DNA from: Candidatus Micrarchaeota archaeon
GTDB taxonomy: Archaea > Iainarchaeota > Iainarchaeia > Iainarchaeales > JAGVWC01
NCBI GenBank assembly: GCA_018813975.1
Contig: JAHJAQ010000028.1
Coordinates: 1-33,735, forward strand
DNA: 33,735 nucleotides
Direction of reading: 5' to 3'
In this document: positions 1-23,180 of the stretch, piece after piece
Layout: the number at the start of each line of letters is the position of its first letter
How positions within the stretch are numbered: the stretch's first letter is position 1
Notes under the pieces: model-generated
The model's input: only the letters and a program-made list of their open reading frames with translations
Database searches by the model: none
Told to the model about the DNA's origin: nothing
Position numbers and translations under genes: made by a program

Positions 1-1233
1 CAATCCAGTGAGCGTGGAAATCATGTAACTGGGATGATCAATTCGAACCGAATACAAGCCGGTAATATCACTAATAGCAAATTCTACAAAACCATCGATT
101 GCGGTACTCTTGGTAGTGAGTTCTACATTGTTATGGATAAGGGCAACATTTGCATTTTCTATCGGGTTTGCGGTAAGAGCATCGGTTACCAATAATTTTA
201 GTTTGCCAAACACAACCTCTTGTAAGATGGCGGTAAATTCAATGGTTTCATTGGGCCCCAATGTTTTAATATCCCCCACTACACTCGAATCATAATCCGC
301 GTATTTGTTGTGTACCAAGTCACTCGTGTAAATATAGTACGATCCAACCGGAACCTCATTAATTTGTATCGTGCCGGTTGCAGTGGTAGTGCGGGGCGTG
401 AATTCTGTTCCGTTCGCGCGCATGATTTTTACATTAATGCCGCCAATGCCCTTGTCACCGGTATCTTGTACGGTTATAATAATGGTTCCGGTTTCCGTTG
501 GTTCTTCTATAACAGATAACGAAACCGGTCCTGTTGTTAAATAATTAATCGTGCCATCTGCAAAATTAATGCCTGTAGTAGTTGGTGTTGCCATTAAAGT
601 TCCACAATCGGGCGGAATGTTTTCAACCGTAATCGTTCCAGTGCTAGTGGTTAAGTCGGATAAAAAACTTTGATTTGCTGTACACCAAAATCGAATGGAA
701 ACTGGTTTGTTATACAATGCGCCACTGGTAGAATCAATTAAATTAACGGTTTGGGTTGTGGTTTGAATTTCTGGAAGCAACATTATCAATTCGTCTTGTT
801 GACTTTCGTTTAATGTTACTTGAATGGTTTGGGTGTAGAATTCTTCTTTGGAAACTTGAATATCCAATTCAGTTCCGAGTGGCAGGACTCTTTCAAATTT
901 TCCTTGGTCATTGGTAGTGCCGTTAATTGGAGCATGGTCTGTAATGGTAATGGATACAATGGCATTGGATACTGAATTGCCTTGGTTGTCTTGAACGGTT
1001 AGTAACAAGGTTCCGTTTCCAATCAAAAACCCGCCCCATACAAACCAAAAAATAAGGAGTAAAATAATGACAATCAGTGCAATAAAAATTGGGAAAGAAG
1101 GAATGTTCGCGGATTCAATAGCATCTGTCACCGAGTAAACTGGAATGCCATGGCCATCCAGCCAGTCTAAAAAATGATAATACTTTTCCTCGAGAGAAAA
1201 ATAGAATCCTTTTATACGGTCTCCAACGCCCAT
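1..1233 (-). CDS. Surface protein with an N-terminal membrane anchor and carboxypeptidase-regulatory-like/PEGA-type beta-sandwich repeats (5' portion only; 3' end runs off the window)
   Basis: Absent from the ORF track because it is open to the window edge. I hand-translated the reverse complement of 1233..1: ATG at 1233-1231, then 411 codons without a stop. It begins MGVGDRIKGFYFSLEEKYYHFLDWLDGHGIPVYSVTDAIESANIPSFPIFIALIVIILLLIFWF. The first ~68 aa are a clear paralogue of the N-terminus of the 2929-aa protein. Repeats follow, such as LLLTVQDNQGNSVSNAIVSITITD..TNDQGKFE and IIITVQDTGDKGIGGINVKIMRANG..TTATGTIQINEVPVGSYYI, typical of CarboxypepD_reg-like folds. Confidence 0.8.
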   Translation of the reverse strand, partial: MGVGDRIKGFYFSLEEKYYHFLDWLDGHGIPVYSVTDAIESANIPSFPIFIALIVIILLLIFWFVWGGFLIGNGTLLLTVQDNQGNSVSNAIVSITITDHAPINGTTNDQGKFERVLPLGTELDIQVSKEEFYTQTIQVTLNESQQDELIMLLPEIQTTTQTVNLIDSTSGALYNKPVSIRFWCTANQSFLSDLTTSTGTITVENIPPDCGTLMATPTTTGINFADGTINYLTTGPVSLSVIEEPTETGTIIITVQDTGDKGIGGINVKIMRANGTEFTPRTTTATGTIQINEVPVGSYYIYTSDLVHNKYADYDSSVVGDIKTLGPNETIEFTAILQEVVFGKLKLLVTDALTANPIENANVALIHNNVELTTKSTAIDGFVEFAISDITGLYSVRIDHPSYMISTLTGL

Positions 1234-1376: not shown

Positions 1377-2786
1377 TTAGGGCTCGCACTTGGCGGCTCC
1401 GCACAACGGATCATCGCAAATCGTTTTGCACAAGCCCAATGTTTCTGGAGACAGGGTATACGAATCCAATACTTGAATGATATATGGTCTGTCAATGTGC
1501 TTGTTTACGCGGTATAATTCATTGTCTTCTGTAAACTTGAATTGTACTTGAAGGGTTCCAGGGCGAAAACAAGTGGTTTCTGAGATCGCGGGGTATCCAG
1601 AATAGGATATCGGGCGTTGTAATGATTCGGGACTGCTATCATAAATTTCACAGTCAACAAGTGTTGTGGTAAAAGGATTGGCAGCATCAATATTCGCTTT
1701 AATACTGCTATCGGGTCCGCATAATAATGCTTCTATAATATTTCGCAGGGCAACATGCGATCCTTCCGCGCCGCCAATTATGCCGGGATTGTACTGCGCA
1801 CTATAATTTGGAATAATGCCTGGAATACCACCAATGTTTTCTGTTGCAATTGGATCGCGGCACGCGTGGTCAGGCCAGTTTGTTCCGCCAGATTGGGTTA
1901 CATTTCCTGTGCGCGGTCCGCATCCAGTATCACACAATCCCGTGCGCACGTTTCCCATGGTATCCCGATAGGGTGAACCGGTTTTAAAAATTTGGTCATC
2001 CGCTACTTGTTTGGTGACAGCTACTGCTTTGAAAATGCGTAATGGAATGTAAATGCGCAAATTACTGCGCGGTAATATTGCGGTTTCTAAAATGTCTCCG
2101 GTAGTAGTGCTTTCTACAATTATTTTGGGAAGGCTTTCATAAACTTCTTGGTCTTCTTGACACGCCGTACTATCAGGGTCGCTTGCAGGATCACAATTAG
2201 AATTAAAAGCACCTAAACTTAAATCCAAGTTTACATAAAACGTTCCAATGTTACAATTGTATTCGTCTTCGCAATCAATGGGTTCAAAAAATTTTTTGCT
2301 TGGATCATCAATAGATTGGGAAATGGTTTGGGTGAGTGCTTGAAACATTGCATCATCATCTTGTTCTAACATAACGGTATATCTTCCAAAGGTGTGCCCT
2401 ATCGCGAGTAAACTACTCAAATAGGTCGTGGTTTCAAAGGCGAATTGTCTTCCTTGGTTGGGGCCGCTGCTTCCAAAATTAGCGGTTACATAATCGGCTA
2501 CTACCTCGTCCCATGGTCGATTTACTGGTTGCGTTAGGGGGAACCAATTGTCTTCTTTGGTTAACCACGTTTCAATTCGAAATCGCAGATTATAAATGAA
2601 TACTTGTAAAGCATCTCCTCGTGCCAGATCCGCCACGGCCTGTATTTCAGCTTGTGATTCTAAGTCTGTCATGGTAGCAATGGCTTTGTCTTCGGTTTGT
2701 GTCATGCTATTCGTGAGAATTACCGTCAAAACAATCATGACAAACGCGACTAAGGCGGTAAACAAATTAAACGCTTTTTGATTCAT
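1377..2786 (-). CDS. Cys-rich secreted protein with a pilin-like N-terminal hydrophobic leader (hypothetical)
   Basis: 469-aa ORF. The N-terminus is MNQKAFNLFTALVAFVMIVLTVILT: short polar head, K-A, then a ~20-aa hydrophobic helix. I count 14 cysteines, all in the predicted extracellular part, including CDTGC and CKTICDDPLCGAAKC clusters. It lies 60 nt downstream of the giant gene on the same strand. Confidence 0.75.
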   Translation of the reverse strand: MNQKAFNLFTALVAFVMIVLTVILTNSMTQTEDKAIATMTDLESQAEIQAVADLARGDALQVFIYNLRFRIETWLTKEDNWFPLTQPVNRPWDEVVADYVTANFGSSGPNQGRQFAFETTTYLSSLLAIGHTFGRYTVMLEQDDDAMFQALTQTISQSIDDPSKKFFEPIDCEDEYNCNIGTFYVNLDLSLGAFNSNCDPASDPDSTACQEDQEVYESLPKIIVESTTTGDILETAILPRSNLRIYIPLRIFKAVAVTKQVADDQIFKTGSPYRDTMGNVRTGLCDTGCGPRTGNVTQSGGTNWPDHACRDPIATENIGGIPGIIPNYSAQYNPGIIGGAEGSHVALRNIIEALLCGPDSSIKANIDAANPFTTTLVDCEIYDSSPESLQRPISYSGYPAISETTCFRPGTLQVQFKFTEDNELYRVNKHIDRPYIIQVLDSYTLSPETLGLCKTICDDPLCGAAKCEP

Positions 2787-2846: not shown

Positions 2847-5800
2847 TTAGCTGGTTTTATAGCTTTTCCACTTGCGATAGGTTGCAACCGCATCTTCCAA
2901 GAATGGCAAGGGTGCTTCTTTGGTGGGATCATAGTATTGATCAAAGATTTTGCGCACACTCGAATCATCGCTCGAACCCGAATAATAGGTAGCGAGTTTG
3001 GTGGCAGCACATGCTATTTGGTCTCCTGCTGCACTGGGATCGCTTTTCCATAATCCGCTTGGATCACAGGCATTGGGAATTTGATGGCGTTGTTCTAATT
3101 CCATGGCCGTTCCTAAAAGGATTTGGGGAATTTTCTTATCCCTGGCTTCTTCTTCCAAAGTGCGTGCACTTAAGTAATACTGGCTTTGTTCTTTTTGGGT
3201 GGTTTGCTTGCCCTCTGGATTCAAACTAAACGCATACCCATCCAATCCTTTGTCTGCAAATTCTCCTTTACAATCGGTATTCAAAGAGGTAGCGTTTTTG
3301 GGAATCATTGAAAGGTCTTTTACTTTATTGAATTCAAATGTTTTATGGGTTTTTCCATCGTCTTTTTTGATTTCTTTTACCGTAATCTTGTAAGTGGCCC
3401 CTTTTTGCAGTTCAATGTTTTGCAAAACATCCCCTTTTTCGGTGCGAATGGGCTGGCCGTCTTTTCCAATGGCCGGTGTTCCTTTGAGCTCACTGGTATC
3501 GGCATTTACTTTGGCAGGTTCATCTAAAGTGGCTTGTGCCATTTTCAATCCAACCGCATTGGATAATACGCCACAGGCAATTCCCCTGCCCAAACCGCCT
3601 AAGAATCTTCTAAATCGTTTAAACCATCCAATTCCTTCTTCAGAGGTGTTAGCAATTACTTTAGAGGTTAGTTCCGCTAACTCATCTTTGAATGCACTGC
3701 GAATTCCTTTTTGTACGTTGTCTGGCGCTGCATTAATGCCTGCTTTGAAACCGCGTTCTACATTCTTTTCGCCACCCGCTGCTAGGCTTGTTTCAATGCG
3801 TTGTATCATATTGTCTAACTGCCCACCACTTACTTTGGTACCGCTTTTACTAACAATTTGATCCGCGATGTCTCTGACCGCTTGTTGCGCGGGCACACTC
3901 AATCCTTGTTCGAGTGTTCTAAGGGCGGTAGAAACTTCTGTGCGTGCATTTCCAAATGCCGCGCGCATTGCCGCTTCGTCTGCTGCGCCACTAATCGCAC
4001 GTGTTTGGGTTTGGAATGCGGTTTGAATGCTTTGTTCTAATTGGCTTCGCTCTGCAGCGGAAAAATTACTCCAGCTTGCACTATTGCGAATTCTTTCCAT
4101 AAACCGCGTCCAAACCCCATTGCGTGCTTCTCTAATATTGAAAGCGCCGCCCGCCGGTGCTTTAATATCATCAAATGTAAAACCGCTCAAAACATTTTCA
4201 TAATTTTTGGTTACAGTTCCTTGTACGGTAATGGGGCCATAGGATTCTGCCATTTTTGCGGCGGCAACATCTTGTAGGCTGGCTGCTTGATTGGCTAAAG
4301 TACTGCCTGCTTTTAGTTTGCCTTGGTTTTTAACTGAAAATTCAATTAGTTTTTCATTTAAATTGCTTTTTTTCACGGCTTCTTGTGTGAGTGTTTCTAG
4401 TGTTGCTTTTTTGGCAGCGGTACTGGTATTAAAAAATAATTTTGACTTGTCCGCTGCAATCTTAGCTCTAAAGGTTTCTTTCAAATTCTTGGTGAGTTCT
4501 TTTTCCAGCATGCTTTTGAGTTCTCTTCTCGCAAGCAGTCCTGATTTCATTTGTTGCTCTACCACTTGGTCTGCAATATCCTCTGCAATTCGTTTAGCGG
4601 CTACGCTCGAAGTACTTTTCGTCAAATAATTATTGTACTTTAGTCCTTTGATTAATGATTTGCCGCTCACACCGCCTAATATTCCTACTAAATCGCCTTC
4701 TTGTTTTTCGCCAGGAGTTCCGGGGAATAATCCTTCTACTTTTTCTGCAATATAACTGGAAACCCCGCCCATTTTTTCGAGGATAAATTCGCGAACGCCT
4801 TTTAATCCTTCCGCCCAAGTTCCTTCGGTGTAAGGCGCGGCCATCCATAATGCTGGGCCCACACAATCAAAGATCGGACCCCATAACCATCCATAAAATC
4901 CAACGGTTTTAATGCCATTACAGGCAGCGGATGTTGTAATGCACGGCGTCCAATAGGTTTCTAAGGGATTGGTCCATTCTCCCCCTATTCCCGGAATGGG
5001 AAAACCAAAAATAGCGCTTAAATGCTTGTCTCTTTGGGCTTGTTCCCCTACTTTTTGTTTGATTTCATCTACGCCAGGACCTTGCAATAGCTTGTCTTCA
5101 TCTTTAAGGTCTCCTTGATCTGCCATGGCATTAATAATGTCTTTCAAATTTGTGGAATTGGGTTCTCCTTTCCAGCCGGGTGTTCCAAAATACTCTCCTG
5201 GTTTTAAAGAAGACAATTTGTTTACCAGATCATACGGGTGGATGCCACACACTTGGTAGGTAATTTTTTTGGTATTGCTTTGTCGAATCGGATCAATAGT
5301 GGATTGGGCGGTTACCTCTATTTTTTCGGCTTTTATGGATAAGGAAAACTGATCGTTTCCTTCCACACACAACGAAGCAATTACGGTATAATTTTTCGTA
5401 GTGTCATTGTATTCTAGTTCAATGGCATCATCTTCTTCATTTAAAATTTTGTCGTGATCGTCAAAGGGGCGAATGGTAATGCGTGCAAGACCATTGTTTT
5501 TGGTCATGATTTCTTTTTTGTTTGTGCGCAGTTTCACACTTTCTTTTATGGGAGAAATCACATTCAAGTCAATGCACGATAATTCATTGGGCAGTACATT
5601 AATGGTGTCGGGCCCTTTCAATTCCAAATCGCCTAATTTTTCAGTTGAACCCAAAATGAAATAAGAGTGGTCTTTTGCAATGCATCCTTTTCCTGCTTGA
5701 ATGCGTTGTTTTTTCAGGGCAGAAATGGAATTGGCTGCTTCTTTTGCTAAATCTTTTTGATTGGTGCCTTCCGTATTCAGTGCTTGGTTTATTGTGGCAA

Positions 5801-8800
5801 GGGTTGTTTTGGGTTCATCGCTTAGTGTACCGGGTTCTAATTCTATTTTTACCAATCCATTGGAAACTTCTCCAAATTCCAAGTGAATCTTGTTACTGCC
5901 CGTGTTTTCATATACCCTTCCATCCACAGTTCCAAAAAATTCTTGGGCAAATGCCGCTCCCACTTCACTTAATTTCAATTCTGCTTCTACCAATCCCACC
6001 CAAGTTCCAAAGGGGTTATCGCCCGTCATGCCTTCATCGGTTGGCAAAAAGTTCAGGACATTTTCAATTTGGTTCGTGCACTCTGGAGTGAGTTCGCGTT
6101 GTTGTACATTAATGGATAAAATAAATCCTTCGTTTCGAATTTGGTTTTGCTGTACAAATGCGGCTCCATTTAGTTTGATTCGGTATTTGCCGCAACCGCG
6201 CAGCAGATTGCTTACAAACAAAAAGTTGGGAAATCCTGTTTGGGCTACGCTTTTGGCATCGCATTCAATGCCCGAACAATATCCCACTGAATAATTCGTT
6301 AGGCTGGCGGGTCCTTTTTCCGCGAATTCTTTTTGGAGCAATTCAACAGCCACTAAATCGTTTTGCAAGAACAAGTCAAAGCTGTCCGAGGGAACTCCCA
6401 ATTCTGTAAAGGTACAGGCTTTTTGTTCTGCAGTATTCACGCAACCAATAAAATTTTCCAGTTGGTTGTTGCTATTCCCAATCGCATTTTGCACTTGATT
6501 GATTTTGTTATCTAGTTTTTCGCCCAAGAATTGGGCTGCTTGTGTCGCGTCACAATATCCTTTTTCACAATCGGCATTGCGCGATATTTTTGGGAAGCGA
6601 ACGCTTTCTTTTGTTCCTGGCGGAATGCCTTCTTCTATGCACACGTCCATGGTATAGGGCTCTGATGCCAGTCCCGTGCTAACCGCCATTTCACCCAATT
6701 CTACTCGGCTTTGCAATCGATTGGATTGAATAAATTTTTGGGTTAATTGGGTTAAGCCTGCCACACTGATTCCCAGGTTTTCGTTTTTGTAATCCCCTTG
6801 CTTGGCTAAGCGAACGATAAATTCTGCTTCCAAGTCTCGTTCTAAATAATCCGTGGTTATTGGCACCAGTAATAGTCCATTGGCACCGATTTGGTTGGGT
6901 TCTATTCCCACTACTCTCACGGCTTCTTCGCATGTGTTTCGAATTCGAACCTTTTTGTCAATTACCCCGAATCGACTTTCCGTGCTAATAAACTCTAAAT
7001 CATCCACTGGTGTTAGGAACAGGCAATTCAAGGCACTAACATGAATCCAAACATCAATATTGCGGAGTACGTGAACCTTTCCATCAATTTCACCCGTAAC
7101 CGTTAAGTAGGAATGAACTAGTCGTCCTTTTTCCGTGCCCCCTCTTTTTTCCGCTACTACTAATTTGGGTGGAAACACTACTTGTCCTTTTGGTAGCACG
7201 GGTACATTTCCAAATGGAATTACGCGAAGGCTCACGCCTTCCAAATAAGAGTTTCCCCCAACTTCTACTCGAAGGTTTTCAATATCCTCTGCCCCTATGT
7301 TTCGCAAGAACAAGGGGCTGGAAGTGATTACGGGTTCTCCTTTTTGGCTTTGGCTTAAAAACAATACAATGCTATCGCTCGTGGCGATTGCAAATCGAGA
7401 ATCCCAAATAATAACATTAAGTGGAATGCTTTTGTTAATGCTGTCCGCCTCAAACAATACTTCAAAAGCATAGTTTTGTTGTTGGGGCAGCATGCGATCG
7501 CGTTTATTGGAAATATGAATCGTGGTTGGAATGGTTTCATTGGGTTGAATGGAAAAACTTGGCACTACAATTTCCAGTCCATTGTCTCCGCCACCCGCTA
7601 TTTTTTCAAGTGCTTTTCCTGTTAATTGTAAGGCGTGCGGGCAGTTATTGGTTACTTGTAATTCTATTTCTTTTGCGGTTTGGTCATAAGCAGAATATAC
7701 ATTCGAAAAAATGTTTCCGCTTCCCCCGTAAGGAGAATTGTTTGAATAATTATAATTGTTATTGAATGGCGAGTACTGTGAATTGTTGTAATAACTGCTG
7801 TCATTATTACTAAAAAAGCGTGGCGAATACTGGTTGTTAGCATAGTCCTGATTGTAGTAACTGTTGTCATAAGCGCTCTGTTGATAGTACGGGTCTTGGC
7901 TATAATTTTGATTGTTATAATTTTGGCTGATATAATTGCTTTGTTGCGGATACCCGCTATTGTATCGCCAAGGTTCATTATAGGTGTCATAATCGTATTG
8001 GTTGTTATTCAAGTATTGCGAAGAATACGGGGTGTTGTATTGCCCTGGATTAGCATAATACTGGTTTTGATTCAGCTCATCATAATAGGGCGAACGATTG
8101 GCCGGATTCATATAGGCCGGTGAATTATAATTGTAGGGGCTGCGATAGGCATTTCCATAAGGAGAATAGCCACTATCCCACTGGTTTAAGGGCTGATTGC
8201 CTGCCAGATACACGGTTAGTTCTTTTTTGTCAAAACTCAAACAATTGGAATCAAAGGGCTCGTTGTAGGAAACCGTTACTCGAGTGGAAGCGATCGCGGG
8301 ATATTTTCCTGCTACCATGGCATGCACCATCAAATCAGCTGTTCCGACCACGTGATGATTGCTGTCTCCAATATAGGTTCCGGTTATATCCATGGTTCCT
8401 TTTTGCCTTGCCTTCAATACACTGCTTGTCTGACCAACTACATCTAATTCGAGTGGCCAGCTATCGGGTTTTTGAATTTCAATGGTAATTTCATTCAAGC
8501 TTTGATTGGAAACATTTTCAATGAAAGCACTTTCTGTTCCGCTTTGCTGGTTTTTTGGAATGCTTACAAAAATTTCTTCAGGCAATCGTAGCATGTCATG
8601 CGCACTAATCGTAAATTCATAGTTTGCCGGTGCAAATCCAAAAGCAGTTGCTTTAATGGTAAAAGTACCGGCCCCTAATGATTCTGTAAAGGCGTATTGT
8701 CCATTCAATCCATTGCCTTGCGAATTGTTACCGACAGTACTGGCAACAATGCTGCCGGTTTCGTCTTTAACGTGAATCGTTGCTTTAGTAACAGGATTTC

Positions 8801-11636
8801 CTGTGTTTTGATCTGTAATATTAATCGTGAATGGTTCATCCATGAGAACTGGTTCTGGTTCAATACTCAAGATCATTTCGCTTTGTTCAAAAATATTAAA
8901 GTAAAAATCTTTTTTCAATGACAAGTGTTCGCCAATAACCTCTGATTTGATGTGCGCATTTCCTGCCTTGAATGGTTTAAAATAAACTCGTGCCGTTCTC
9001 ACCCCGTTTTCTAACACACTCAAATCGTTTATTTCAATTACAGAATCGGTTTCATCGGTATCAAAAAATTCAGTGAAGGTTTCTACTTCGGTTCCGGTAA
9101 AAAACAATTTGGGTTGTGTTTTATCCGTACTGGCACGCAATAATATGCCTTGTTCTTCTTTGGCTCTTAAACTAATTTCCAATGCATATACCCTTCCGCG
9201 AAGCGCTTGGAACTCTTCGGGGGAAGTGGCTTCTCCGTCTGTTGCAATAAAACGGTATTCGGCACACACATTTTCCATGCATTGTTCTTTAGTGGTAAAT
9301 AAGGAAACCTCTTCATCAAATGTAATCGCATACAATCCGGTTTTGGTATTAGAATACGCGTCTCTTCCCAACTCGGAATCTTGCGGGCTTCTAAAATATT
9401 GTCCGTCAATACTGCTCCAATCCCGATAATGAATGGGCAATGTCATTTGAGAAAACCCTTCTTTTAATCGTACTTTTACGCGCACCAATTGGCTTCCTTC
9501 CGGATTGGTATAATACAATTCCAGCCATTTGTTGTAATTGCCTGCTTTTCCTACATTTCCAAAGTCTGCTGCTTCGTTTCCTGGTGCTGGAAAAGCCGTG
9601 TAAGACCTTCCATAAAAAAAGCTGGCAACGTTTGTAGCACTAAAACCAGTAATTCCTATTTGTTCTGAATCGGCAAAAGTAACTTGGTCGTTTCCAACCC
9701 TAAAATGCAATCCGCCCCTGTATTCTCCTTTAATCCAGTCTACTTGGAATTTTAACCAATAATCGGTTTCTGGGGTGATGCCATCCACTGGTTTTCCTTC
9801 TGCATCTTCTATTCCCAAAAAAGTAATCGGTGGGGCGAGTGCTTCTACATTGTTTTCGCGCCATTGTACAATAATTTCTGTTTTACCTTCTACATTGACT
9901 TGTTCGGAAAAAGAATTGCCATCATAATCAAATATTGTGATATCTACATTCTTGTATTGTTTGGCATCAAAAATAACAGTTCCTTCTTCTGAAAGATTTT
10001 CATCCAACAATACTGCTCCAGTCACACTTTTTACGAGTGCCGTGCCTTCCCAAAAGGGGTTGCCATCCAAACCCAGTACGCGTAATAGTTTAGCGGTTTC
10101 AATGGGCTTCATGCGAACCGCAACATTGTTTTCCATTCCGGGTTGAATAAAAATGTTCGCATCTCCTTTCTCAAATCCTTTTTGCGCGACCACTAAAATG
10201 TTTCGATTTGCTGGTGCTTCAATAGTTGCAAAACCATCATACTCGGTTAGAACAGTTGGCAAGCCAGTTGGAATGGGCTTTCCCACTACTAATTCATAAA
10301 AGTGCAGGCCGGTATTGTTCGCGGCAAATCCAGTGGAATCCGTTACAATTACATTGAGGGTTCCCGTGTTACTAGTGCTCGCGGTTTCTAAGGCAAGGGT
10401 TATTTCGCTGGTATCCAATGGGGTTATCCAAATTGTTTGGGGAACATAACCGCTTTTGTAAGCGGTAACAAAATAGTTTTGGTCTGGATTCAAATCCAAA
10501 AAGTCTACTCCTCCTGTAAAAGGCGTTTTTTGTTCTAATAATAGTTCTGCGCTTTCAGTGTACAATCCGACCGCAGCATCAAAAATGGAAATGTTAGAAT
10601 CGGCTTCTGTTACCGTAACATGAATTTGGTTGCCGCCTTCTTGTAATTCAATATCAATTTGAGTGGGGTCTTCTCGCAAGGTAAATTCTTCTGTACTGGT
10701 TACCGTGTAACCTGATTTGGTGGCAATGATTTTGAAAATCGTTCCTTTGGGTAAGTCCAATACAAACTGGCCGTTAACAGTAATAGCTTCTGCCAATCCT
10801 TGTTCGTTTTGAGGATTAATAATGCGTAATAATACATCGCTTAATGGAATTTGGGTTGTCTTGTCAAATGTTTTTACAATTAGGTTGGCGCTTCCAAACA
10901 AGGCTGTTCCTCTTGGAACCATGGCAATGCTTGGAACACTTCCCTCTGCAAAAGTATACGGCTGAATAATGGTTTCATAATTGTCCGCAATTATTTCCAA
11001 TTGCACTTCTTCGCCAGTTGGCACGCCCAATGCACTGAATAGTCCGTTTGCATCGGTTTGACCAGTCCTTACAAAATCAGTGCCCCATTTGAGGGTTACT
11101 TGGGCGCCAGGAATGGGAATACCACTCTCAGAATCAATTAATCGTAATTGCGCTACTTGGCTTCGGATTTGTTTGTCAAGTGTTATCACAACTTGTAAAC
11201 TCGTGTCTTTTACTTGTATTTGCGTGTAACCGGTTTCAAAGTTTTCTTTGATGCCCGTAATGCTCAAGAATCCTCCTGGCGTAATTCCATCCAATTGAAT
11301 ACTGTCACCATGACTTTTTCGGCCTTCAAAAATAGTGTTACCACTATCATTTACGATTTTTACATCAACTTGGGTTAGGCTGTTGCCACTATTATCCACT
11401 AAGCTTAATCCGATTGTAGTGGTTAATTGGGCCGGAATAAACAAGAACCAAAACAACAATACAACAAGCAATACTACCATTGCGATGGTAACGGGAAAAG
11501 CAGGAATGCCCCGGTCTTCCAGGGCATTTACATAGGCATAAATTGGAATGCCTTTTTCATCCATCCAATCGACTATATTGAAAAAACCGTCTTCTACCCG
11601 CGCATACGCACTGGCCAAGGTATCTCCAATCGCCAT
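2847..11636 (-). CDS. Giant (2929 aa) N-terminally anchored surface protein: beta-sandwich repeats, N/Y/Q-rich linker, further Ig-like domains, aromatic hydrophobic patch, long helical region and a distinct C-terminal ~110-aa module
   Basis: Single uninterrupted ORF. The N-terminus MAIGDTLASAYARVEDGFFNIVDWMDEKGIPIYAYVNALEDRGIPAFPVTIAMVVLLVVLLFWF contains one TM helix. About 6 CarboxypepD_reg-like repeats span aa ~75-560 (e.g. LRLIDSESGIPIPGAQVTLKWGTDFVRTGQTDANGLFSALGVPTGEEVQLEIIADNYE). Later beta-sandwich-like segments carry xNxS/G strands (FIENVSNQSLNEITIEI, LFLRNIGAEDIENLRVEV, VRIRNTCEEAVRVVGIEP). Confidence 0.9.
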   Translation of the reverse strand: MAIGDTLASAYARVEDGFFNIVDWMDEKGIPIYAYVNALEDRGIPAFPVTIAMVVLLVVLLFWFLFIPAQLTTTIGLSLVDNSGNSLTQVDVKIVNDSGNTIFEGRKSHGDSIQLDGITPGGFLSITGIKENFETGYTQIQVKDTSLQVVITLDKQIRSQVAQLRLIDSESGIPIPGAQVTLKWGTDFVRTGQTDANGLFSALGVPTGEEVQLEIIADNYETIIQPYTFAEGSVPSIAMVPRGTALFGSANLIVKTFDKTTQIPLSDVLLRIINPQNEQGLAEAITVNGQFVLDLPKGTIFKIIATKSGYTVTSTEEFTLREDPTQIDIELQEGGNQIHVTVTEADSNISIFDAAVGLYTESAELLLEQKTPFTGGVDFLDLNPDQNYFVTAYKSGYVPQTIWITPLDTSEITLALETASTSNTGTLNVIVTDSTGFAANNTGLHFYELVVGKPIPTGLPTVLTEYDGFATIEAPANRNILVVAQKGFEKGDANIFIQPGMENNVAVRMKPIETAKLLRVLGLDGNPFWEGTALVKSVTGAVLLDENLSEEGTVIFDAKQYKNVDITIFDYDGNSFSEQVNVEGKTEIIVQWRENNVEALAPPITFLGIEDAEGKPVDGITPETDYWLKFQVDWIKGEYRGGLHFRVGNDQVTFADSEQIGITGFSATNVASFFYGRSYTAFPAPGNEAADFGNVGKAGNYNKWLELYYTNPEGSQLVRVKVRLKEGFSQMTLPIHYRDWSSIDGQYFRSPQDSELGRDAYSNTKTGLYAITFDEEVSLFTTKEQCMENVCAEYRFIATDGEATSPEEFQALRGRVYALEISLRAKEEQGILLRASTDKTQPKLFFTGTEVETFTEFFDTDETDSVIEINDLSVLENGVRTARVYFKPFKAGNAHIKSEVIGEHLSLKKDFYFNIFEQSEMILSIEPEPVLMDEPFTINITDQNTGNPVTKATIHVKDETGSIVASTVGNNSQGNGLNGQYAFTESLGAGTFTIKATAFGFAPANYEFTISAHDMLRLPEEIFVSIPKNQQSGTESAFIENVSNQSLNEITIEIQKPDSWPLELDVVGQTSSVLKARQKGTMDITGTYIGDSNHHVVGTADLMVHAMVAGKYPAIASTRVTVSYNEPFDSNCLSFDKKELTVYLAGNQPLNQWDSGYSPYGNAYRSPYNYNSPAYMNPANRSPYYDELNQNQYYANPGQYNTPYSSQYLNNNQYDYDTYNEPWRYNSGYPQQSNYISQNYNNQNYSQDPYYQQSAYDNSYYNQDYANNQYSPRFFSNNDSSYYNNSQYSPFNNNYNYSNNSPYGGSGNIFSNVYSAYDQTAKEIELQVTNNCPHALQLTGKALEKIAGGGDNGLEIVVPSFSIQPNETIPTTIHISNKRDRMLPQQQNYAFEVLFEADSINKSIPLNVIIWDSRFAIATSDSIVLFLSQSQKGEPVITSSPLFLRNIGAEDIENLRVEVGGNSYLEGVSLRVIPFGNVPVLPKGQVVFPPKLVVAEKRGGTEKGRLVHSYLTVTGEIDGKVHVLRNIDVWIHVSALNCLFLTPVDDLEFISTESRFGVIDKKVRIRNTCEEAVRVVGIEPNQIGANGLLLVPITTDYLERDLEAEFIVRLAKQGDYKNENLGISVAGLTQLTQKFIQSNRLQSRVELGEMAVSTGLASEPYTMDVCIEEGIPPGTKESVRFPKISRNADCEKGYCDATQAAQFLGEKLDNKINQVQNAIGNSNNQLENFIGCVNTAEQKACTFTELGVPSDSFDLFLQNDLVAVELLQKEFAEKGPASLTNYSVGYCSGIECDAKSVAQTGFPNFLFVSNLLRGCGKYRIKLNGAAFVQQNQIRNEGFILSINVQQRELTPECTNQIENVLNFLPTDEGMTGDNPFGTWVGLVEAELKLSEVGAAFAQEFFGTVDGRVYENTGSNKIHLEFGEVSNGLVKIELEPGTLSDEPKTTLATINQALNTEGTNQKDLAKEAANSISALKKQRIQAGKGCIAKDHSYFILGSTEKLGDLELKGPDTINVLPNELSCIDLNVISPIKESVKLRTNKKEIMTKNNGLARITIRPFDDHDKILNEEDDAIELEYNDTTKNYTVIASLCVEGNDQFSLSIKAEKIEVTAQSTIDPIRQSNTKKITYQVCGIHPYDLVNKLSSLKPGEYFGTPGWKGEPNSTNLKDIINAMADQGDLKDEDKLLQGPGVDEIKQKVGEQAQRDKHLSAIFGFPIPGIGGEWTNPLETYWTPCITTSAACNGIKTVGFYGWLWGPIFDCVGPALWMAAPYTEGTWAEGLKGVREFILEKMGGVSSYIAEKVEGLFPGTPGEKQEGDLVGILGGVSGKSLIKGLKYNNYLTKSTSSVAAKRIAEDIADQVVEQQMKSGLLARRELKSMLEKELTKNLKETFRAKIAADKSKLFFNTSTAAKKATLETLTQEAVKKSNLNEKLIEFSVKNQGKLKAGSTLANQAASLQDVAAAKMAESYGPITVQGTVTKNYENVLSGFTFDDIKAPAGGAFNIREARNGVWTRFMERIRNSASWSNFSAAERSQLEQSIQTAFQTQTRAISGAADEAAMRAAFGNARTEVSTALRTLEQGLSVPAQQAVRDIADQIVSKSGTKVSGGQLDNMIQRIETSLAAGGEKNVERGFKAGINAAPDNVQKGIRSAFKDELAELTSKVIANTSEEGIGWFKRFRRFLGGLGRGIACGVLSNAVGLKMAQATLDEPAKVNADTSELKGTPAIGKDGQPIRTEKGDVLQNIELQKGATYKITVKEIKKDDGKTHKTFEFNKVKDLSMIPKNATSLNTDCKGEFADKGLDGYAFSLNPEGKQTTQKEQSQYYLSARTLEEEARDKKIPQILLGTAMELEQRHQIPNACDPSGLWKSDPSAAGDQIACAATKLATYYSGSSDDSSVRKIFDQYYDPTKEAPLPFLEDAVATYRKWKSYKTS
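7686..8198 (-). repeat. Compositionally biased N/Y/Q/S/P-rich (prion-like) low-complexity segment inside the giant protein (aa ~1147-1317)
   Basis: The translation reads NQPLNQWDSGYSPYGNAYRSPYNYNSPAYMNPANRSPYYDELNQNQYYANPGQYNTPYSSQYLNNNQYDYDTYNEPWRYNSGYPQQSNYISQNYNNQNYSQDPYYQQSAYDNSYYNQDYANNQYSPRFFSNNDSSYYNNSQYSPFNNNYNYSNNSPYGGSG. Both alternative-frame ORFs in the track here (7664..7990, 7881..8123) are by-products of the biased DNA. Confidence 0.85.
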
Positions 11637-11745: not shown

Positions 11746-12408
11746 ATGGCTGCAGTTTCCTCTAAAAAAACAACGCAATCACCTCCTGCCAAAAAGCTCC
11801 GAGGGGCCATGAAACGCATTCCCGTAACTAGTTCTCAAGACTTTCCAAAGGTTTTTACCTTGGCAGGCGGCTTGGTGGGTTTTCAGTATATGCCTGGAAA
11901 GCATCCTGATAGTTCTTTCTATATTTACTTGTTGCCGGTTGGTAGAAGACGCGAAGCTTGGAAACAATTTGATGTGGGAGAAAAGGGGGTTGCCTTTCAA
12001 CAGCTGCATCCTTATTCTTCAGGTTTAAAGCGACCACTTTTGGCAAAGGGAACCTTAACGCCTTGGAACCCTCAAAAACTAAAGCAAGCGCCCCCCAAAC
12101 TCCAAAGACGGGCAAAAAATAGAACTGTTTTAGAAGTGGGTTTTTCGATTATGCCCTCTCATCATGCGCCAAAAGGAAAACCTTCTTTATTGCAAAAAGG
12201 CATTGGAACTGCCCTGCTAAAAGAACTGGAGCTACAAGCCAAGCAAAAAGGCGTTTCATTGTTAGCGGCAACCGTTGAAACACACAATGAAAAAAGTCAG
12301 CGTTTACTAGAAAAAAATGGTTTTGTTCGTGTTGGAGGCTCAGTTCTAAAAGTGCAATTCGGCATGGCTCCTCATTTACACGTTTATTATTACTACAAAG
12401 AATTATAG
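11746..12408 (+). CDS. GNAT-family N-acetyltransferase with an atypical basic/proline-rich N-terminal and internal extension
   Basis: The C-terminal half carries the acetyl-CoA binding motif A and flanking pattern: LLQKGIGTALLKELELQAKQKGVSLLAATVETHNEKSQRLLEKNGFVRVG (Q/R-x-x-G-x-G/A, then N..A..L.EK.GF). The N-terminal ~130 aa are not recognisable. The true start is uncertain; an internal ATG lies at 11809. Confidence 0.65.
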   Translation: MAAVSSKKTTQSPPAKKLRGAMKRIPVTSSQDFPKVFTLAGGLVGFQYMPGKHPDSSFYIYLLPVGRRREAWKQFDVGEKGVAFQQLHPYSSGLKRPLLAKGTLTPWNPQKLKQAPPKLQRRAKNRTVLEVGFSIMPSHHAPKGKPSLLQKGIGTALLKELELQAKQKGVSLLAATVETHNEKSQRLLEKNGFVRVGGSVLKVQFGMAPHLHVYYYYKEL

Positions 12409-12425
12409 TTAGTTTGTAGTTATTT

Positions 12426-12431
12426 AGGAGG
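12426..12431 (+). promoter_or_regulatory. Shine-Dalgarno site (AGGAGG) for the YjbQ-family gene
   Basis: AGGAGG lies 6 nt upstream of the ATG at 12438. Confidence 0.55.
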
Positions 12432-12437
12432 AATGGA

Positions 12438-12857
12438 ATGAAGTCTTTGACCGAGCACTTATGGTTTCAGATTCCTTCCAGAAGGGGTTTTGTGAACATT
12501 ACCCCCAAAATCGAAGAATTGGTGCAAAAAAGCAAGGTACAAGAAGGATTGTGTTTGGTAAATGCCATGCACATTACCGCAAGCGTTTTCATTAACGATG
12601 ATGAGCCTGGCTTGCACGCTGATTTTGAAAAATGGTTACAAGAACTAGCCCCGGAAAAACCTTACAACACGTATCGCCACAACGATACCGGAGAAGATAA
12701 TGCGGATGCGCACTTAAAGCGCACGATAATGGGTCGCGAAGTTACTGTTGCGATTACAAATGGAAAATTGGATGTGGGGCCCTGGGAACAAATCTTTTAC
12801 GGCGAGTTTGACGGCAAGCGCAAAAAAAGAGTACTTGTAAAAATCATTGGCGAGTAA
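12438..12857 (+). CDS. yjbQ: YjbQ/UPF0047 family protein (secondary thiamine-phosphate synthase-type enzyme)
   Basis: 139 aa, the typical family size. It shows the family-typical pattern throughout: [51 protein letters not shown]....[58 protein letters not shown]. Confidence 0.88.
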
Positions 12858-12859
12858 AA

Positions 12860-13402
12860 TTATTTTTTAGATTTTTTTCTGTTTTTGAATTTGTTATAAC
12901 TCCACCATAGCCATGCGCCGTAAAAGACTGCAATCACAATGAACAAGAACAAGCGGAATAATACATCGTGCGATAAAACCACTATTTCTAAGGGAGCGTT
13001 TAGAATGAAAAGAGTTGTAACCAGAATGCGAATCTGATTGAATATAAAAATTCCAATAATAGCAGCTATTACCCCCACTATTCTTTTTTTCCAATAGATT
13101 TCAAAAGTAGCAAGGATTGCTGCTAGCAATACAATCGCTTCCAGGATTCCCGTACACAAATCATTAATAACAATGGTAGGCCCTTTTGTCAATTGAATTA
13201 GTACTGTTTCTCCGATTTGGAATTGGTTGGAAATGCCCATCCCATTCAAGAGTGCACTATTGGTTTGACCGGTAATGCTTTCAAAAAAAAGGGGCGGGAA
13301 TAGGCTTGTGAAAAGGTTTAGTGCCACAAAAGCAATGAGTAAGAATAGCACGAATTTTCCGGCATTCAAGACTTCTTGGTATTCTTTTTCAGTGGCTTTC
13401 AT
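12860..13402 (-). CDS. Small exosortase/archaeosortase-family membrane protein (candidate archaeosortase)
   Basis: 180-aa polytopic membrane protein. The three family signature residues occur in the expected order and context: Cys in VINDLCTGILEAIVLLAA (compare C-S-G), Arg in FIFNQIRILVTTLF (compare N-x-x-R-I), and His in VVLSHDVLFRLFLF. An AAGGAG SD-like element (complement of 13414-13419) precedes the ATG at 13402. Confidence 0.6.
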   Translation of the reverse strand: MKATEKEYQEVLNAGKFVLFLLIAFVALNLFTSLFPPLFFESITGQTNSALLNGMGISNQFQIGETVLIQLTKGPTIVINDLCTGILEAIVLLAAILATFEIYWKKRIVGVIAAIIGIFIFNQIRILVTTLFILNAPLEIVVLSHDVLFRLFLFIVIAVFYGAWLWWSYNKFKNRKKSKK

Positions 13403-13482: not shown

Positions 13483-16400
13483 GTGAAAATCGGCAAGTTT
13501 GATGTTGGGGAATACGTTGTCCGCGAAATGGGGGGCAAAAAACACCTTGTTTTTGACTGTAAAAACTGCGTTTATGGAAGCAGTTTATCGGATGATTCTG
13601 CTTGTCGATTCCATGCCATTGCTATTTTACAAGAAGTAGAAGCCAAATTACTCGTTCTAGCCGATGTGTACGAGCGTGTATATGATGAACAGCAAACCGA
13701 ATTAGTCAAAGAAATTGCGTTAATGGCCAAGCGGTTTGAAAACGAATCCATTTGGAGTTATGCTCACCTTGGAACCCAAGATTCCGAGTGTGAGCAAACC
13801 TTTGCTTCTAGGCACACTATTGTAGTGAGAATAGCGCATGATTTGGCTCGATTTGATCCGGTCATGGCCTATCTTACGTGCTTGCAAGAAATCAAAAAAG
13901 AAACCGGTCGCGCAACCGGATTGAATGAGGGTGGAAGAGCCTGTAGCAAGGTTTTTTTGGATACTTTACTGTATTTGAAAAATCGTTTTGAACAAACCGG
14001 TTTGATTGGTAAAACAAAAGAATACTTGTTAAAGTTGCGGAGCATTCCTGACACCAAAGACGTTTACAAGTCATTATTAGAGGCGCAAATCAAACCCGCG
14101 TTTATTGGTTCGCGGTTATTGTTTGGGGAAACCGAAGAACTAGAACTATTGGATGAGTACTCTGTGGGAAGAGCAGCGGTTCAAATTTTTTCTCATCCCA
14201 ATAAAATCGAGAAATTGTATTTTTTGAATCCGCCGGAATACACACTGCCACCCGAAAAATATTTTGTGTTAAGCAAAACAAAAGAAATTGTCGCGTCCTA
14301 CAAACCCGGCTCCACCACCTTGAGTGGCATTGCCAAAAGTAGAAAATATTTTGAACGGATTTATGAAAGCACGATTCATGATATTGGCCAAGCCAACCAA
14401 ATTTTTTTAAGTCCGGAAGAAGCAAAAGAGTTAGCAGAGATTGTCGCGCGGTACACGGTTGGGTATGGAATCTTAGAATTGATTTTGGGAGACCGGCATT
14501 TAACCGATATCTTTTTGGATTCTCCGATTGGCATGAAACCGATTTATGTGGTGCACGAGGATTATGGACAATGCCAAACCAATATTTTGTATACTGATGA
14601 TGAAGCCAATGCATTGGTTTCCAAAATGCGTGCCATGAGTGGAAGGCCATTTGATGAAGTGCATCCAGTACTGGATTTTGACTTGCCCGACTTGGAAACC
14701 CGGGTGGCTGTTATTGGAAAACCACTTGCACCTGATGGAACTGCTTTTGCTTTTCGCTTGCACAAAGTAACGCCATGGACCTTGCCCCAATTCATTGATA
14801 ACAATTTCATTAATCCGCTTGGCGCGGGTTTATTGAGTTTTTTTGTGGACCAACAAGCCACGATGCTTATTACGGGTTCTAGGGGGAGTGGAAAATGTGT
14901 GGATGGTGGTAGCCTGCTACAGCTTGGAAATGGCCAGACGGAAAAAATAAAAAAAATAATCGATCCGATAATCAAAAAAGCACAGAGAACTATTGAATTG
15001 GCAGATGGTGTTTGCATTGACTTGCAGGAAAATGGTATTCAATTGGAAACCGTTACCATGACTCCGGGTTTGAAGACACAAATTGTTCCAGTTTCAAAGG
15101 TTTGGAGAAGGGCTGCTCCTAAAAAAATGGTTTCAGTAACCTTGCGATCAGGAAAGCGTGTTGTTACGACGCCAGAGCATCCATTCTTTTTGACAGAAAA
15201 GGGGAAAATTATCCAGAAAAGAGCGGATGAATTAACCATATGCGATTTTATTGCAACACCAAGGATCATTCCAGCGAAACAGGACAATAATTATTCCACT
15301 GACTGGATTCCAACCAGTAGGTCTCTTGAACCGAAACTGTGCGGAATTGAAAGAGAAATTCAGGAGTTTTTGTGCTCTTATTCAAAAAATAATAGTCTCA
15401 AAGAGCTTGCAACCAAAGCACGCCTTCCCTATAAAACAATTCTTAACATAAAGAGCGGGGTAAGAAAAACAATTTCTCTTAGCGAACTTCGAAGCATTTC
15501 AGGTATTCTCGGATTGGATTATTATCCCCTTGTCGAAAAAGCATCTTATTGGATTTTTCGAAATTCTCCCAATCGGATTAATGCCGGTTTTTTCTTCAAA
15601 ACCATTAATAACAATACAAAAGCGGCCCGGTTTTTGGGTCTTCTTTTGGGGGACGGACATATCGATGAAAAGTCGATCTCGTTCACCAACACCAACATTG
15701 GTTTGCTGGAAGAATTCCGGACATTGTGTCGGGAATTATTCGGGATAAAAGCCTACATTTGTTTCCCAAAAAACCGCTCTCCTCATTGCATGGTTACTTC
15801 AGTCGGGCTTTCTAGGCTGATTTCCTTGCGATTTGGCATTCCTTTTGGCAAAAAAGCGGGCATACAAGAGATGCCAAAGGAAATCGTTATGGGTTCGGAA
15901 GCGGTTCTTTCAGAATTTTTGAGGGCCTATTTTGACTGCGATGGATCGGTTCATATTCAAAAAAGGCTTGTTGACCTGTCTACCGCCAGTAAAAAGATGG
16001 CTTTTGACATTCAAAACGCGCTTCACCGGTTTGGCATCATTTCGTTTTTAAGAGCAAAGACAGTTAGAAGAAAAGAGTATTATATCGTAGCCATGTCGGG
16101 AGAAAACGCGTTTGTTTTTTCTCAAAAAATTGGCTTCAGTTTAAGTTCAAAAAAAGAAAAACTTGCACAGGCATTTTTAGAAGAGAAATTTAACACGAAT
16201 ATTGATATTGTTCCAAATTGTCTTCCTTTCCTTCAGACCATTCAAAAGTGCCACGGTGTTTTTACTGCTAGAATGGTAACGCTTGACCAAAAGAACATTT
16301 CCAGAAAAAAACTGCAAAGGTTTATTTCAAGTTCAGATTCGGGGCTGGTGGAAATTGAGGATTTGAAAAAGTTGGCGTGCTCGGATATTTTTTGGGACGA

Positions 16401-18930: not shown

Positions 18931-18961
18931 CAATACTTTTTTACGGAATCGTGGTTAGAGT

Positions 18962-21333: not shown

Positions 21334-21783
21334 GTGAAAAAGAAAAGGCTAAACCAAAAAGGAGAATTTGGTGTTTTTCGATTGCTCATTGGAGCGGTTC
21401 TTGGACTCGCACTATTGTTAGTGGTGTTGTCTATTATTGCTGATGTGGAAGAACAAAAGTATCGAATTAGTGCCTTGCATTTTTCGGATGGTTTTTCTTC
21501 TGCGATAAACCTTCCGAATGGAACGCCGGTCCAACAAGAAGACTTGTTTTTTAAACAAGGCGAAGTTTTTACGGATTCTGCTTTAGCAAAAAAATTTAAT
21601 TTTGAAGACGAAACGTGTATTCTTTTTTTTACAGACCATTCAGGGGTTTCGGTTTCAGCTGATCAGCATATTGCGCGTATTATACATCCTGTTCACACGG
21701 ATGTTTTTTTTGACTGCAAAAATATTGGTGCTTGCAGGCCTCATTGTCGAGTCTCTTTTGGAAAAGAGCTCCCGATTCGCTGA
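21334..21783 (+). CDS. Prepilin-like protein (class III signal peptide-like N-terminus), 4 Cys
   Basis: GTG start with GGAGG (21323-21327) 6 nt upstream. The N-terminus is MKKKRLNQKGEFGVFRLLIGAVLGLALLLVVLSII: basic head, K-G, then a hydrophobic helix. Confidence 0.65.
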   Translation: MKKKRLNQKGEFGVFRLLIGAVLGLALLLVVLSIIADVEEQKYRISALHFSDGFSSAINLPNGTPVQQEDLFFKQGEVFTDSALAKKFNFEDETCILFFTDHSGVSVSADQHIARIIHPVHTDVFFDCKNIGACRPHCRVSFGKELPIR

Positions 21784-21803
21784 TAATCGCGGATAACCAT
21801 AGC

Positions 21804-21811
21804 TTTAAATA
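21804..21811 (+). promoter_or_regulatory. Candidate TATA box (TTTAAATA) upstream of the pilin gene at 21838
   Basis: Centred about 30 nt upstream of the ATG at 21838, with no SD in between. This fits a leaderless or short-leader archaeal transcript starting an internal pilin transcription unit. Confidence 0.4.
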
Positions 21812-21837
21812 CGAGTTTTGCTTTTTATCTTCTTGTT

Positions 21838-22362: not shown

Positions 22363-22432
22363 AACCATTTTTAACTACTTTTTTTTCTTTTCCATTTGTT
22401 TTATATAGCTCTTTATCGCTCTTTATTGTTGT

Positions 22433-23166: not shown

Positions 23167-23180
23167 AAGGAAGGAAAAAA

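Follow-up and report, generated by a model that had tools for sequence, protein, structure and literature searches.

Predicted giant surface proteins of Micrarchaeota and Iainarchaeota share a fixed architecture and an exchangeable terminal cassette probably directed at murein

Large proteins bearing murein hydrolase domains are already known from two groups of DPANN archaea, the Woesearchaeota and the Pacearchaeota. The murein-like lytic transglycosylase proteins of family fam00969 reach up to about 3000 residues, are defined by an SLT domain, and are described as specific to these two groups (Castelle et al. 2021, PMC8204110). A second report took genes for a "large lytic murein transglycosylase" as evidence of predation by Woesearchaeota (Vigneron et al. 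2022, PMC9723730), and such genes have also been noted in three DPANN metagenome-assembled genomes from oxygen-deficient zones (PMC10936187). We describe here a protein of 2929 residues (the "giant") encoded in a 33,735-nucleotide stretch of a Candidatus Micrarchaeota archaeon (assembly GCA_018813975.1, contig JAHJAQ010000028.1, positions 1 to 33,735; hereafter "the window"), together with the family to which it belongs and the genes that surround it.

Among DPANN archaea, giant surface proteins with a proposed role in host contact also include the SPEARE proteins of Candidatus Nanohaloarchaeum antarcticus, which carry serine protease, adhesion and restriction-endonuclease domains. The window giant shares with them its size, its predicted surface location and a proposed host-contact role, but Pfam finds no serine protease, adhesion or restriction-endonuclease domain in it. 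Pb2 of phage T5 is an example of another kind of comparable protein, the muralytic tape measure proteins (TMPs) of phages. These proteins, such as the TMP of mycobacteriophage TM4, combine a long helical segment of variable length, which includes hydrophobic segments, with a peptidoglycan-hydrolase motif, for crossing the bacterial envelope (PMC1796659). In predatory Omnitrophota, very large multi-domain surface proteins ("Archaeovorins"), some of them with SLT domains, are linked to degradation of the partner's wall, and their genes follow others resembling type II secretion system (T2SS) or type IV pilus (T4P) components and small genes with class III signal peptides (bioRxiv 10.1101/2023.11.21.568195). 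The neighbourhood of the window giant is likewise of the pilus or secretion type. The Omnitrophota giants, however, come from bacteria, are 10-30 times its size and have numerous enzymatic domains all along the chain; no relationship in sequence has been found, and the resemblance is one of neighbourhood logic and not of family.

The giant gene (2847..11636, minus strand, as for all its segments below) is a single ATG-to-stop open reading frame (ORF) with its stop codon at 2847-2849. Its 8.8 kb occupy 26% of the window, in line with the quarter estimated by a first-pass annotation of the sequence. Direct searches of the PDB and NCBIfam with the whole protein return nothing. A word-indexed search retrieves seven full-length relatives of 2779-2930 residues, including four that are colinear with the window protein at 44-53% identity and two that align at 27-30% over residues 1-2250. 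Supplying an alignment of the central region to the same search adds only one protein, and an exhaustive HMMER search is needed to see the giant family. With the central module (residues 1320-2200) as query against 1.84 billion representatives, this search yields 155 clusters, 124 of them at E<1e-30. Most clusters of the family are 2400-3400 residues long, and the central module always lies at about residues 1140-2100. When one genome per GTDB species is scanned, 28 giant loci are found, labelled mostly Candidatus Micrarchaeota, Candidatus Iainarchaeum or "uncultured archaeon", and members bear NCBI names such as [quoted passage not shown] and [quoted passage not shown]. The giant ORF is a member of a conserved family of predicted membrane-anchored surface proteins in the Micrarchaeota and Iainarchaeota. 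That the relatives are DPANN archaea agrees with the earlier supposition of a small archaeal genome investing in host or substrate interaction. Two family loci labelled Candidatus Falkowbacteria (L009) and Thaumarchaeota (L018) are probably mis-binned contigs; the former has the DPANN-type gene cluster, the latter only part of it.

The plan common to the family runs, in the window protein as elsewhere, from an N-terminal head and transmembrane helix through a Cys-rich module to a first hydrophobic patch, a helical spacer, a second patch and a segment ending at C2789. Conservation is counted below on an alignment of 70 full-length sequences or, where indicated, on a smaller one of 7; transmembrane helices are judged by Kyte-Doolittle (KD) hydropathy in 19-residue windows with a threshold of 1.6. 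Two AlphaFold (AF2) models, built from 7-sequence alignments, are informative locally, their mean predicted local distance difference test (pLDDT) scores being 58 and 57. The first-pass annotation had considered that the long ORF might be an assembly artefact, by chimeric join or collapsed repeat, or might be broken up in relatives. What the relatives present instead is four independent full-length homologues colinear from end to end, and an architecture common to 155 clusters. Furthermore, the database contains a twin of the window protein (P0001) with a single difference, R2502G (window 4131..4133), which suggests another, almost identical assembly from one population, and the domain order is explicable without any tandem DNA repeat. 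Because of the colinear homologues and the large family, a chimera is excluded: the ORF is intact, conserved and maintained as one protein, and the idea of an artefact is in effect ruled out for the complete ORF. The exact length of one low-complexity linker, rich in Asn and Tyr and the longest of the family, could still be mis-assembled.

Comparison of the relatives, which the first-pass annotation had recommended in order to see which segments are conserved or swapped, reveals a fixed architecture with an exchangeable terminal cassette. Of the 70 aligned relatives, 18 stop with essentially no tail beyond the conserved C2789, 27 have a tail of the window's type and 25 one of another type. A Pfam scan of 38 C-terminal tails assigns SLT to five (best E 7e-15), NlpC/P60 to three (2e-25), Glucosaminidase (GH73) to two (2e-10), and Amidase_3 (2e-20), Amidase_2 (2e-17), DUF2272 (2e-16) and a GDSL lipase (7e-15) to one each. 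Examples are P0058 for SLT, P0104 for NlpC/P60 and P0124 for GH73 combined with Amidase_2. SLT, GH73, NlpC/P60, Amidase_2 and Amidase_3 are bona fide peptidoglycan hydrolase classes and are unrelated to one another. Since unrelated enzymes acting on one substrate, peptidoglycan, occupy the same position in a fixed architecture, the prediction that the distal end deals with murein is well supported for the family. The same observation bears out the idea of a stalk projecting a functional C-terminal module, recognisable peptidoglycan hydrolases being found at this position in relatives. A sub-clade (P0075-P0095) has no Cys in the C2789 column and carries a third helical tail type of about 150-190 residues (…EQR.L…Y.YT…), which differs from the window's cassette and matches no Pfam hydrolase.

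These features set the family beside fam00969 and the proteins of Vigneron et al.: all are extracellular DPANN proteins of up to ~3000 residues with bacterial-type murein hydrolase domains, read as means of attachment to, or attack on, the bacterial wall. In origin (DPANN relatives) and length (2929 residues), the window protein falls within the description of fam00969. Unlike fam00969 as there described, the present family is found in Micrarchaeota and Iainarchaeota, its hydrolase is a swappable cassette drawn from several classes, and the window member has no recognisable SLT domain, SLT occurring in 5 of the 38 tails of relatives. The fam00969 descriptions, in the parts available, do not mention a conserved head, central modules or a gene cluster, and the two are set apart here by description.

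The cassette of the window protein itself (residues 2806-2929, 2850..3221) is all-helical, AF2 predicting residues 2814-2929 with confidence (pLDDT 84-92). It contains the motifs IPQILLGTAMELE2848Q, SGLWK, IAC2876AATKL, QYYD and YRKW, and is putatively lysozyme-like. According to iterative searches within the family, it is the commonest cassette type, which 32 other members carry at their C-terminus or close to it, with the consensus [IV]PEALLV..I.K[ST]..G....GC....I.CAA..L...C...C.L.(A)Y(N)......Y..W. Its resemblance to the GH73 and GH23 families (PF01832; SLT, PF01464) lies in the all-helical fold, in a helix with E2848 at its end, where the catalytic Glu would be, and in an SLT-like order of motifs. 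A member of the type, P0059 ("...AGIMETGFG...NNLFGC..."), matches positions 5-45 of Pfam Glucosaminidase PF01832, the region of the catalytic Glu, at E=7.4e-5 (23.9 bits, below the cut-off of 30.2). In hhalign, a 35-sequence profile of the cassette aligns with the family's three true GH73 tails over the helix and the catalytic-Glu motif at P=0.018, controls with reversed alignments and unrelated modules giving P 0.14-0.95. In the aligned column, the E-[ST]-G-x-G motif of GH73 reads E-Q-R-H-Q in the window protein and K-[ST]-x-x-G in most modules of the type. The same profile against the family's SLT tails is not significant (P=0.3), the motif order being similar by eye; the window protein itself gives no SLT match at E up to 10 and no match to PF01832. 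Glu2848 stands in the putative catalytic column, where the two closest relatives of the window protein also have Glu. Unlike in GH73 and GH23, this acid varies within the cassette type, and the window module has no significant match in sequence or fold. Our best guess, somewhat more likely than not, is that the cassette is a degenerate lysozyme-like module, possibly non-catalytic and murein-binding. The terminal module singled out by the first-pass annotation is confirmed as a confidently predicted fold, of putative lysozyme-like identity in the window protein.

The explanation we favour, and consider probable, is that the giant is a stalk on the cell surface that makes contact with the murein wall of a partner or prey bacterium, with a terminal cassette that binds or cleaves peptidoglycan. 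The chain of β-sandwiches would form a long stalk carrying the C-terminal region from the archaeal membrane to the murein-bearing envelope of the partner or prey, where the cassette would bind peptidoglycan or cleave it locally. The hydrophobic and helical region beside the cassette may engage the target membrane. In the window protein, the cassette would be a divergent lysozyme-like module of the GH23/GH73 clan with Glu2848 at the catalytic position, acting as a weak hydrolase or only binding murein. A pilus-like machine and a pilin-like protein encoded nearby probably help to deploy or present this giant and a second one. Under this hypothesis, and by analogy, the C-terminal 730 residues would work like a muralytic TMP. 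Unlike in TMPs, this region is the distal end of a predicted membrane-anchored cellular protein with a 2100-residue β-sandwich stalk, and it resembles TMPs in neither sequence nor fold: a Foldseek search of BFVD yields a best E of 0.29, with one TMP at rank 42 (E=3.7).

Several observations weigh against this explanation. Because 18 of the 70 full-length relatives are essentially tailless, the core function of the family cannot depend on the cassette. Most modules of the window's cassette type have Lys and not Glu in the putative catalytic column, so that the whole type may lack catalytic activity. The terminal module of the window protein has no sequence match in Pfam, NCBIfam or the PDB, whether taken alone, as a 3-sequence profile or as a 35-sequence profile, and the Foldseek search with the whole C-terminal model finds no lysozyme-like structure in the top 50 (best E=0.35 in the PDB, 0.29 in BFVD). 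Both AlphaFold models have low overall confidence (mean pLDDT 57-58), and the expression, surface localisation and activity of the giant are predictions from its sequence. Finally, the hosts of cultured Micrarchaeota are archaea, which lack murein (bioRxiv 10.1101/2024.05.20.594898).

The N-terminus of the giant is a conserved head, predicted to be cytoplasmic (residues 1-45, 11502..11636), with the motif Y11, E15, G29-I-P, E40, [KR]-G43-I-P45-x-F-P. G29, G43 and P45 are invariant and Y11, E15, P31 and E40 nearly so; the head is acidic, with the consensus ...Y.K.ED.FY...D.L..KGIPVY.....LE.[KR]GIP.FP immediately before the transmembrane helix, and is shared by the second giant of the locus and by P0008. 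The helix that follows (residues ~46-70, 11427..11501) is a single signal anchor with a KD maximum of 3.13. No other 19-residue window of the protein exceeds 1.4, and the helix reaches 1.6 in 70/70 relatives, which upholds the earlier description of a cytoplasmic head with a single transmembrane segment. It is the only confident membrane anchor, in a type II (N-in) topology.

This N-terminus allows another view of anchoring and deployment, which is a variant of the stalk explanation and which we regard as unlikely: the giant might be a modular pilin or pilus-tip adhesin, its head being a long class III leader cleaved after the invariant Gly43 by a prepilin peptidase, so that the pilus-like machine would extract the helix and the giant would be displayed along a filament or at its tip, in company with a neighbouring pilin-like protein of 469 residues. 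In the window protein, R-G43 is followed by I-P-A-F-P and a hydrophobic helix, as in pilins, and G43 and P45 are invariant, with a basic residue before G43 in most members. Conserved neighbours include an ATPase, a PilC-like gene, at least five genes with class III signal peptides and the large pilin-like gene between the two giants; genes of the T2SS/T4P type and small class III signal peptide genes likewise precede the Omnitrophota giants. However, known prepilin leaders, whether archaeal or bacterial class III signals, are short and basic, unlike this head, which is 43 residues long, acidic and strongly conserved (Y11, E15, G29). Moreover, the second giant has Asn in place of Gly at the site (A-N-IPSFP in the window, Q-N-IPSFP in P0008 and L002), which argues against cleavage, and no prepilin peptidase is recognised in the window.

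Beyond the anchor, the ectodomain of ~2100 residues consists of β-sandwich modules and two conserved Cys-rich modules. Its many invariant Cys residues are consistent with an extracellular location. It begins with an array of CarboxypepD_reg-like or MG-like β-sandwich repeats (residues 75-592, 9861..11414), in which Pfam PF13620 matches three stretches with 79.1 bits (cut-off 32.3). A family-trained profile delimits four repeats in this array (residues 77-147, 162-241, 254-331 and 340-416) and a fifth further along (938-1013); residues 425-592 may hold two more, recognised by eye only. The "about six" repeats of the first-pass annotation are thus roughly right, four being delimited by the profile and two plausible by eye. 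CarboxypepD_reg-like domains above the gathering threshold (PF13620 and PF13715) account for only ~15% of the protein, and Pfam gives no match past residue ~1020. An alpha-2-macroglobulin-like reading was considered and rejected: the bMG3 match lies below threshold (30.1 bits, cut-off 34.9), there is no CxEQ/CGE (CGEQ-type) thioester motif, and Foldseek matches to A2M, C5 and TEP1 reach a TM-score of only ~0.1.

The most conserved ectodomain module (residues 598-930, 8847..9845) has no Pfam match. Invariant positions are F630, R646, G648, D691, R738, P751, Y769, A770, C786 and C791; its very conserved part, residues ~598-800, includes the polar R646, D691 and R738 and the C786-C791 pair. The family profile of residues 598-800 finds in the PDB, as its best and weak match (E=0.012), a non-catalytic region of the endo-beta-N-acetylglucosaminidase Endo-HS (Endo-beta-GlcNAcase HS). 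This resemblance, together with the hydrolase cassettes of relatives, would suit a cell-bound scaffold for exo-enzymes that displays murein-degrading and carbohydrate-binding modules and scavenges amino sugars and peptides from bacterial necromass without a specific living partner, and Iainarchaeota have been proposed to be free-living (PMC10936187). A stalk of ~2100 residues, helices of membrane-active appearance, a second giant and a pilus machine would nevertheless seem to exceed the needs of a tethered hydrolase, and the commonest cassette type has no conserved catalytic acid. We judge such a scavenging role to be quite improbable.

A CarbopepD_reg_2 β-sandwich follows (residues 938-1013; PF13715, 34.4 bits, cut-off 32.2, Pfam span 940-1015), with a further segment up to residue 1149 (8190..8825), and then a low-complexity linker rich in Asn, Tyr, Ser and Gln (residues 1150-1318, 7683..8189; N 21%, Y 21%, S 14%, Q 9%). 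At this junction the window protein has 187 residues, the longest such insertion in the family, versus a family median of 17, which makes the linker a lineage-specific expansion and not a conserved design. The N/Y/Q-rich "prion-like linker" noticed at first is thus present without being a conserved family feature. Next come three β-sandwich domains that are ASH/PapD-like by fold (residues 1320-1610, 6807..7679) according to the AF2 model and Foldseek, and, beyond the Cys-rich central module, a further β-sandwich domain (residues 2010-2130, 5247..5609; pLDDT 70-84); taken together, the β-sandwiches of both stretches are modelled at pLDDT about 60-88. The additional β-sandwich segments of the first-pass annotation are accounted for by these four domains. 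Foldseek matches of the central model are confined to tandem ASH/PapD-like and MG-like β-sandwich proteins (hydin/ASH, CEP192 SPD-2, PapD-like chaperones), with low TM-scores.

The Cys-rich central module (residues 1640-2010, 5607..6719) has invariant C1666, C1695-D1696, C1815 and C1853, and nearly invariant C1690, C1732, C1741 and G1814/G1816; C1985 is also listed among its conserved positions. Residues 1690-1850 form an α/β region in the AF2 model (pLDDT 70-84). Profiles of 7 or 18 sequences, the family profile of residues 1655-1995 included, find no match to this module in the PDB. The view that the central and C-terminal parts are undescribed domains therefore holds in so far as family profiles find no Pfam or PDB match; these parts are, however, conserved in at least 155 clusters, and comparable large DPANN proteins figure in the literature (PMC8204110).

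The C-terminal ~700 residues, the C-terminal third, are almost wholly helical in the AF2 model, consistent with the distinct composition and helical region reported for this third at the outset. A patch rich in Gly, Cys and aromatic residues comes first (patch 1, residues ~2205-2285, 4782..5024), with C2232, C2258 and P2261 nearly invariant. The hydrophobic patch of the first-pass annotation is hence real, albeit only moderately hydrophobic, with a KD of 1.0 in the window protein and a family median of 1.64. An α-helical, poorly conserved spacer (residues 2286-2665, 3642..4781) separates it from the basic stretch FKRFRRF and an amphipathic Gly-rich motif, G-x-x-C-G-x-x-x-N-x-A-G (patch 2, residues 2670-2705, 3522..3629). 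In this motif (residues ~2681-2696), G2685, C2688, N2693 and G2696 are invariant in 7 sequences and G2696 nearly so in 70. The region before the cassette ends with a small conserved segment (residues 2706-2790, 3267..3521; KGxTYK ... D-C2789), for which two β-strands are predicted with low confidence. An antiparallel hairpin was tried for the spacer and not retained: the break of lowest helix propensity is not central, its positions being spread, with 19% within 0.4-0.6. Constitutive transmembrane helices were likewise not adopted for the two patches, patch 1 being borderline and patch 2 too weakly hydrophobic.

The topology of this region matters for a further possibility, in which the giant is a component of the archaeon's own envelope, as scaffold, spacer or S-layer-associated protein, with its C-terminal region folded back to its own membrane. 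The chain would run out-in-out through the two patches, the helical region would be cytoplasmic, and the cassette would serve envelope remodelling or be non-catalytic. Patch 1 attains KD >=1.6 in 37/70 members, and the basic FKRFRRF stretch, situated where patch 2 meets the helical region, is placed as expected from the positive-inside rule for an in-to-out transmembrane segment. The 18 tailless relatives fit as well, and the very uniform length of the architecture is what a structural ruler would be expected to show. Patch 2 is nonetheless unconvincing as a transmembrane segment: its KD has a median of 1.09 and reaches 1.6 in only 2/70 members, and an Arg or Lys is conserved within it. The stretch from C2258 to G2696, which holds the helical region, varies from 161 to 1070 residues (about 6-fold) across the family. 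To our knowledge, the archaeal envelope does not contain murein, so that five unrelated classes of murein hydrolase would find no substrate there. The window also encodes a better S-layer candidate, a protein of 1536 residues (28965..33575, plus strand) with no Pfam match and a C-terminal tripartite sorting signal (VPENPF, a transmembrane segment and RTRIKPRR). We hold a role in the archaeon's own envelope to be decidedly unlikely.

The genes around the giant are conserved as well. The window proteins were compared by tblastn with 30 loci, the counts for the ATPase and the PilC-like gene being limited by flank length. Directly downstream of the giant, 24/30 loci have a gene for a large pilin-like protein, which in the window is 469 residues long and lies between the two giants (1377..2786, minus strand), with a prepilin-type N-terminus (K/R)(G/A)-F-(T/N)-L-(F/Y)-T-A-L. 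This protein has a Cys-rich C-terminus and belongs to no Pfam family; in most of the 24 loci (L001-L029), its prepilin start, (K/R)(G/A)FTLFTALLSF, is bacterial-looking. The second giant comes next in 22 loci. In the window, only the start of its gene is present, running off the edge (1..1233, minus strand), with the same head, transmembrane helix and CarboxypepD_reg-like repeats; full-length counterparts have 3046 (L001) and 2558 (L002) residues, that of L001 with a CAP domain. Upstream of the giant, an exosortase-family gene is found in 16 loci, a T2SSE/FlaI-type ATPase gene in 13 and a PilC-like gene in 9.

In the window, the first of these upstream genes encodes an exosortase/archaeosortase-family membrane protein of 180 residues (12860..13402, minus strand; TIGR04178, 37.6 bits, cut-off 23, and a Pfam Exosortase_EpsH match). 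The giant was rejected as its substrate: it ends ...YRKWKSYKTS, with no C-terminal transmembrane segment or tripartite sorting signal. The 1536-residue protein is plausibly a likelier archaeosortase substrate, and possibly an S-layer protein, as suggested by its C-terminus. A type IV pilus-like motor follows on the plus strand (13483..21331), made of a FlaI/PilB-type ATPase and a 789-residue PilC/T2SSF-like membrane protein. The T2SSE ATPase (13483..18930) reaches 1815 residues owing to two inteins with LAGLIDADG homing-endonuclease domains; its orthologue beside the giant of L002 has 767 residues, with T2SSE as the only Pfam match on record. Then come six consecutive small to medium genes (21334..25787, plus strand), most of them with class III (prepilin-type) signal peptides at their N-termini (QKG-EFGVF, KGQG-SGVFQLLIA, RGQ-SSAPFEVLIA, NRGQ-SSIMDAFFFF; a 234-residue ORF is without the motif), which resemble a group of pilins or minor pilins.

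Other genes of the window may be mentioned briefly. A GNAT acetyltransferase gene and a UPF0047 gene (11746..12857, plus strand), located between the exosortase-family gene and the giant, occur in this position in 0/30 related loci. A 521-residue protein (25813..27378, minus strand) pairs a lipobox-like N-terminus (…FFLTGC…) with a C-terminal Cys-rich zinc finger of the RING/FYVE type (weak Pfam matches, E about 0.003-0.02), a pairing that is unusual in archaea. Neither an Rfam scan nor a tRNA scan finds anything in the window.

The conservation of these neighbours raises a bolder possibility, which is conceivable and yet doubtful: the cluster, comprising the exosortase-family protein, giant 1, the large pilin-like protein, giant 2 and the type IV pilus-like motor with its minor pilins, might be a previously unrecognised, contact-dependent apparatus for breaching envelopes, in which the pilus-like machine deploys the two giants and giant 1, by means of its exchangeable murein-hydrolase cassette and the hydrophobic and helical region beside it, opens the bacterial wall and possibly the membrane. 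If so, the Micrarchaeota and Iainarchaeota would include parasites or predators of bacteria, although their cultured members are known only with archaeal hosts, and the folds of the two Cys-rich central modules would be new ones, serving receptor binding or catalysis.

For the window gene alone, the outcome is mainly a well-founded annotation, which bears out the first-pass description in its essentials and supports its interpretation, large murein-hydrolase proteins having already been published for other DPANN phyla. We found no earlier description of a Micrarchaeota/Iainarchaeota family with a fixed architecture, cassette swapping among several hydrolase classes, a new cassette type and a conserved head, nor of a conserved cluster in which two giants are encoded with a pilin-like protein and a pilus machine; a recent large genomics study of Micrarchaeota does not use the terms peptidoglycan, murein, pili, large protein, adhesi- or bacterial host in its main text (PMC12892359). 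The family defines at least two large conserved extracellular modules without a sequence-detectable relative among solved structures, as well as a new type of C-terminal cassette. Every DPANN archaeon known in culture lives attached to other archaea. The swappable wall-hydrolase tips of a family of more than 150 clusters thus offer a testable molecular handle on contact between archaea and bacteria.

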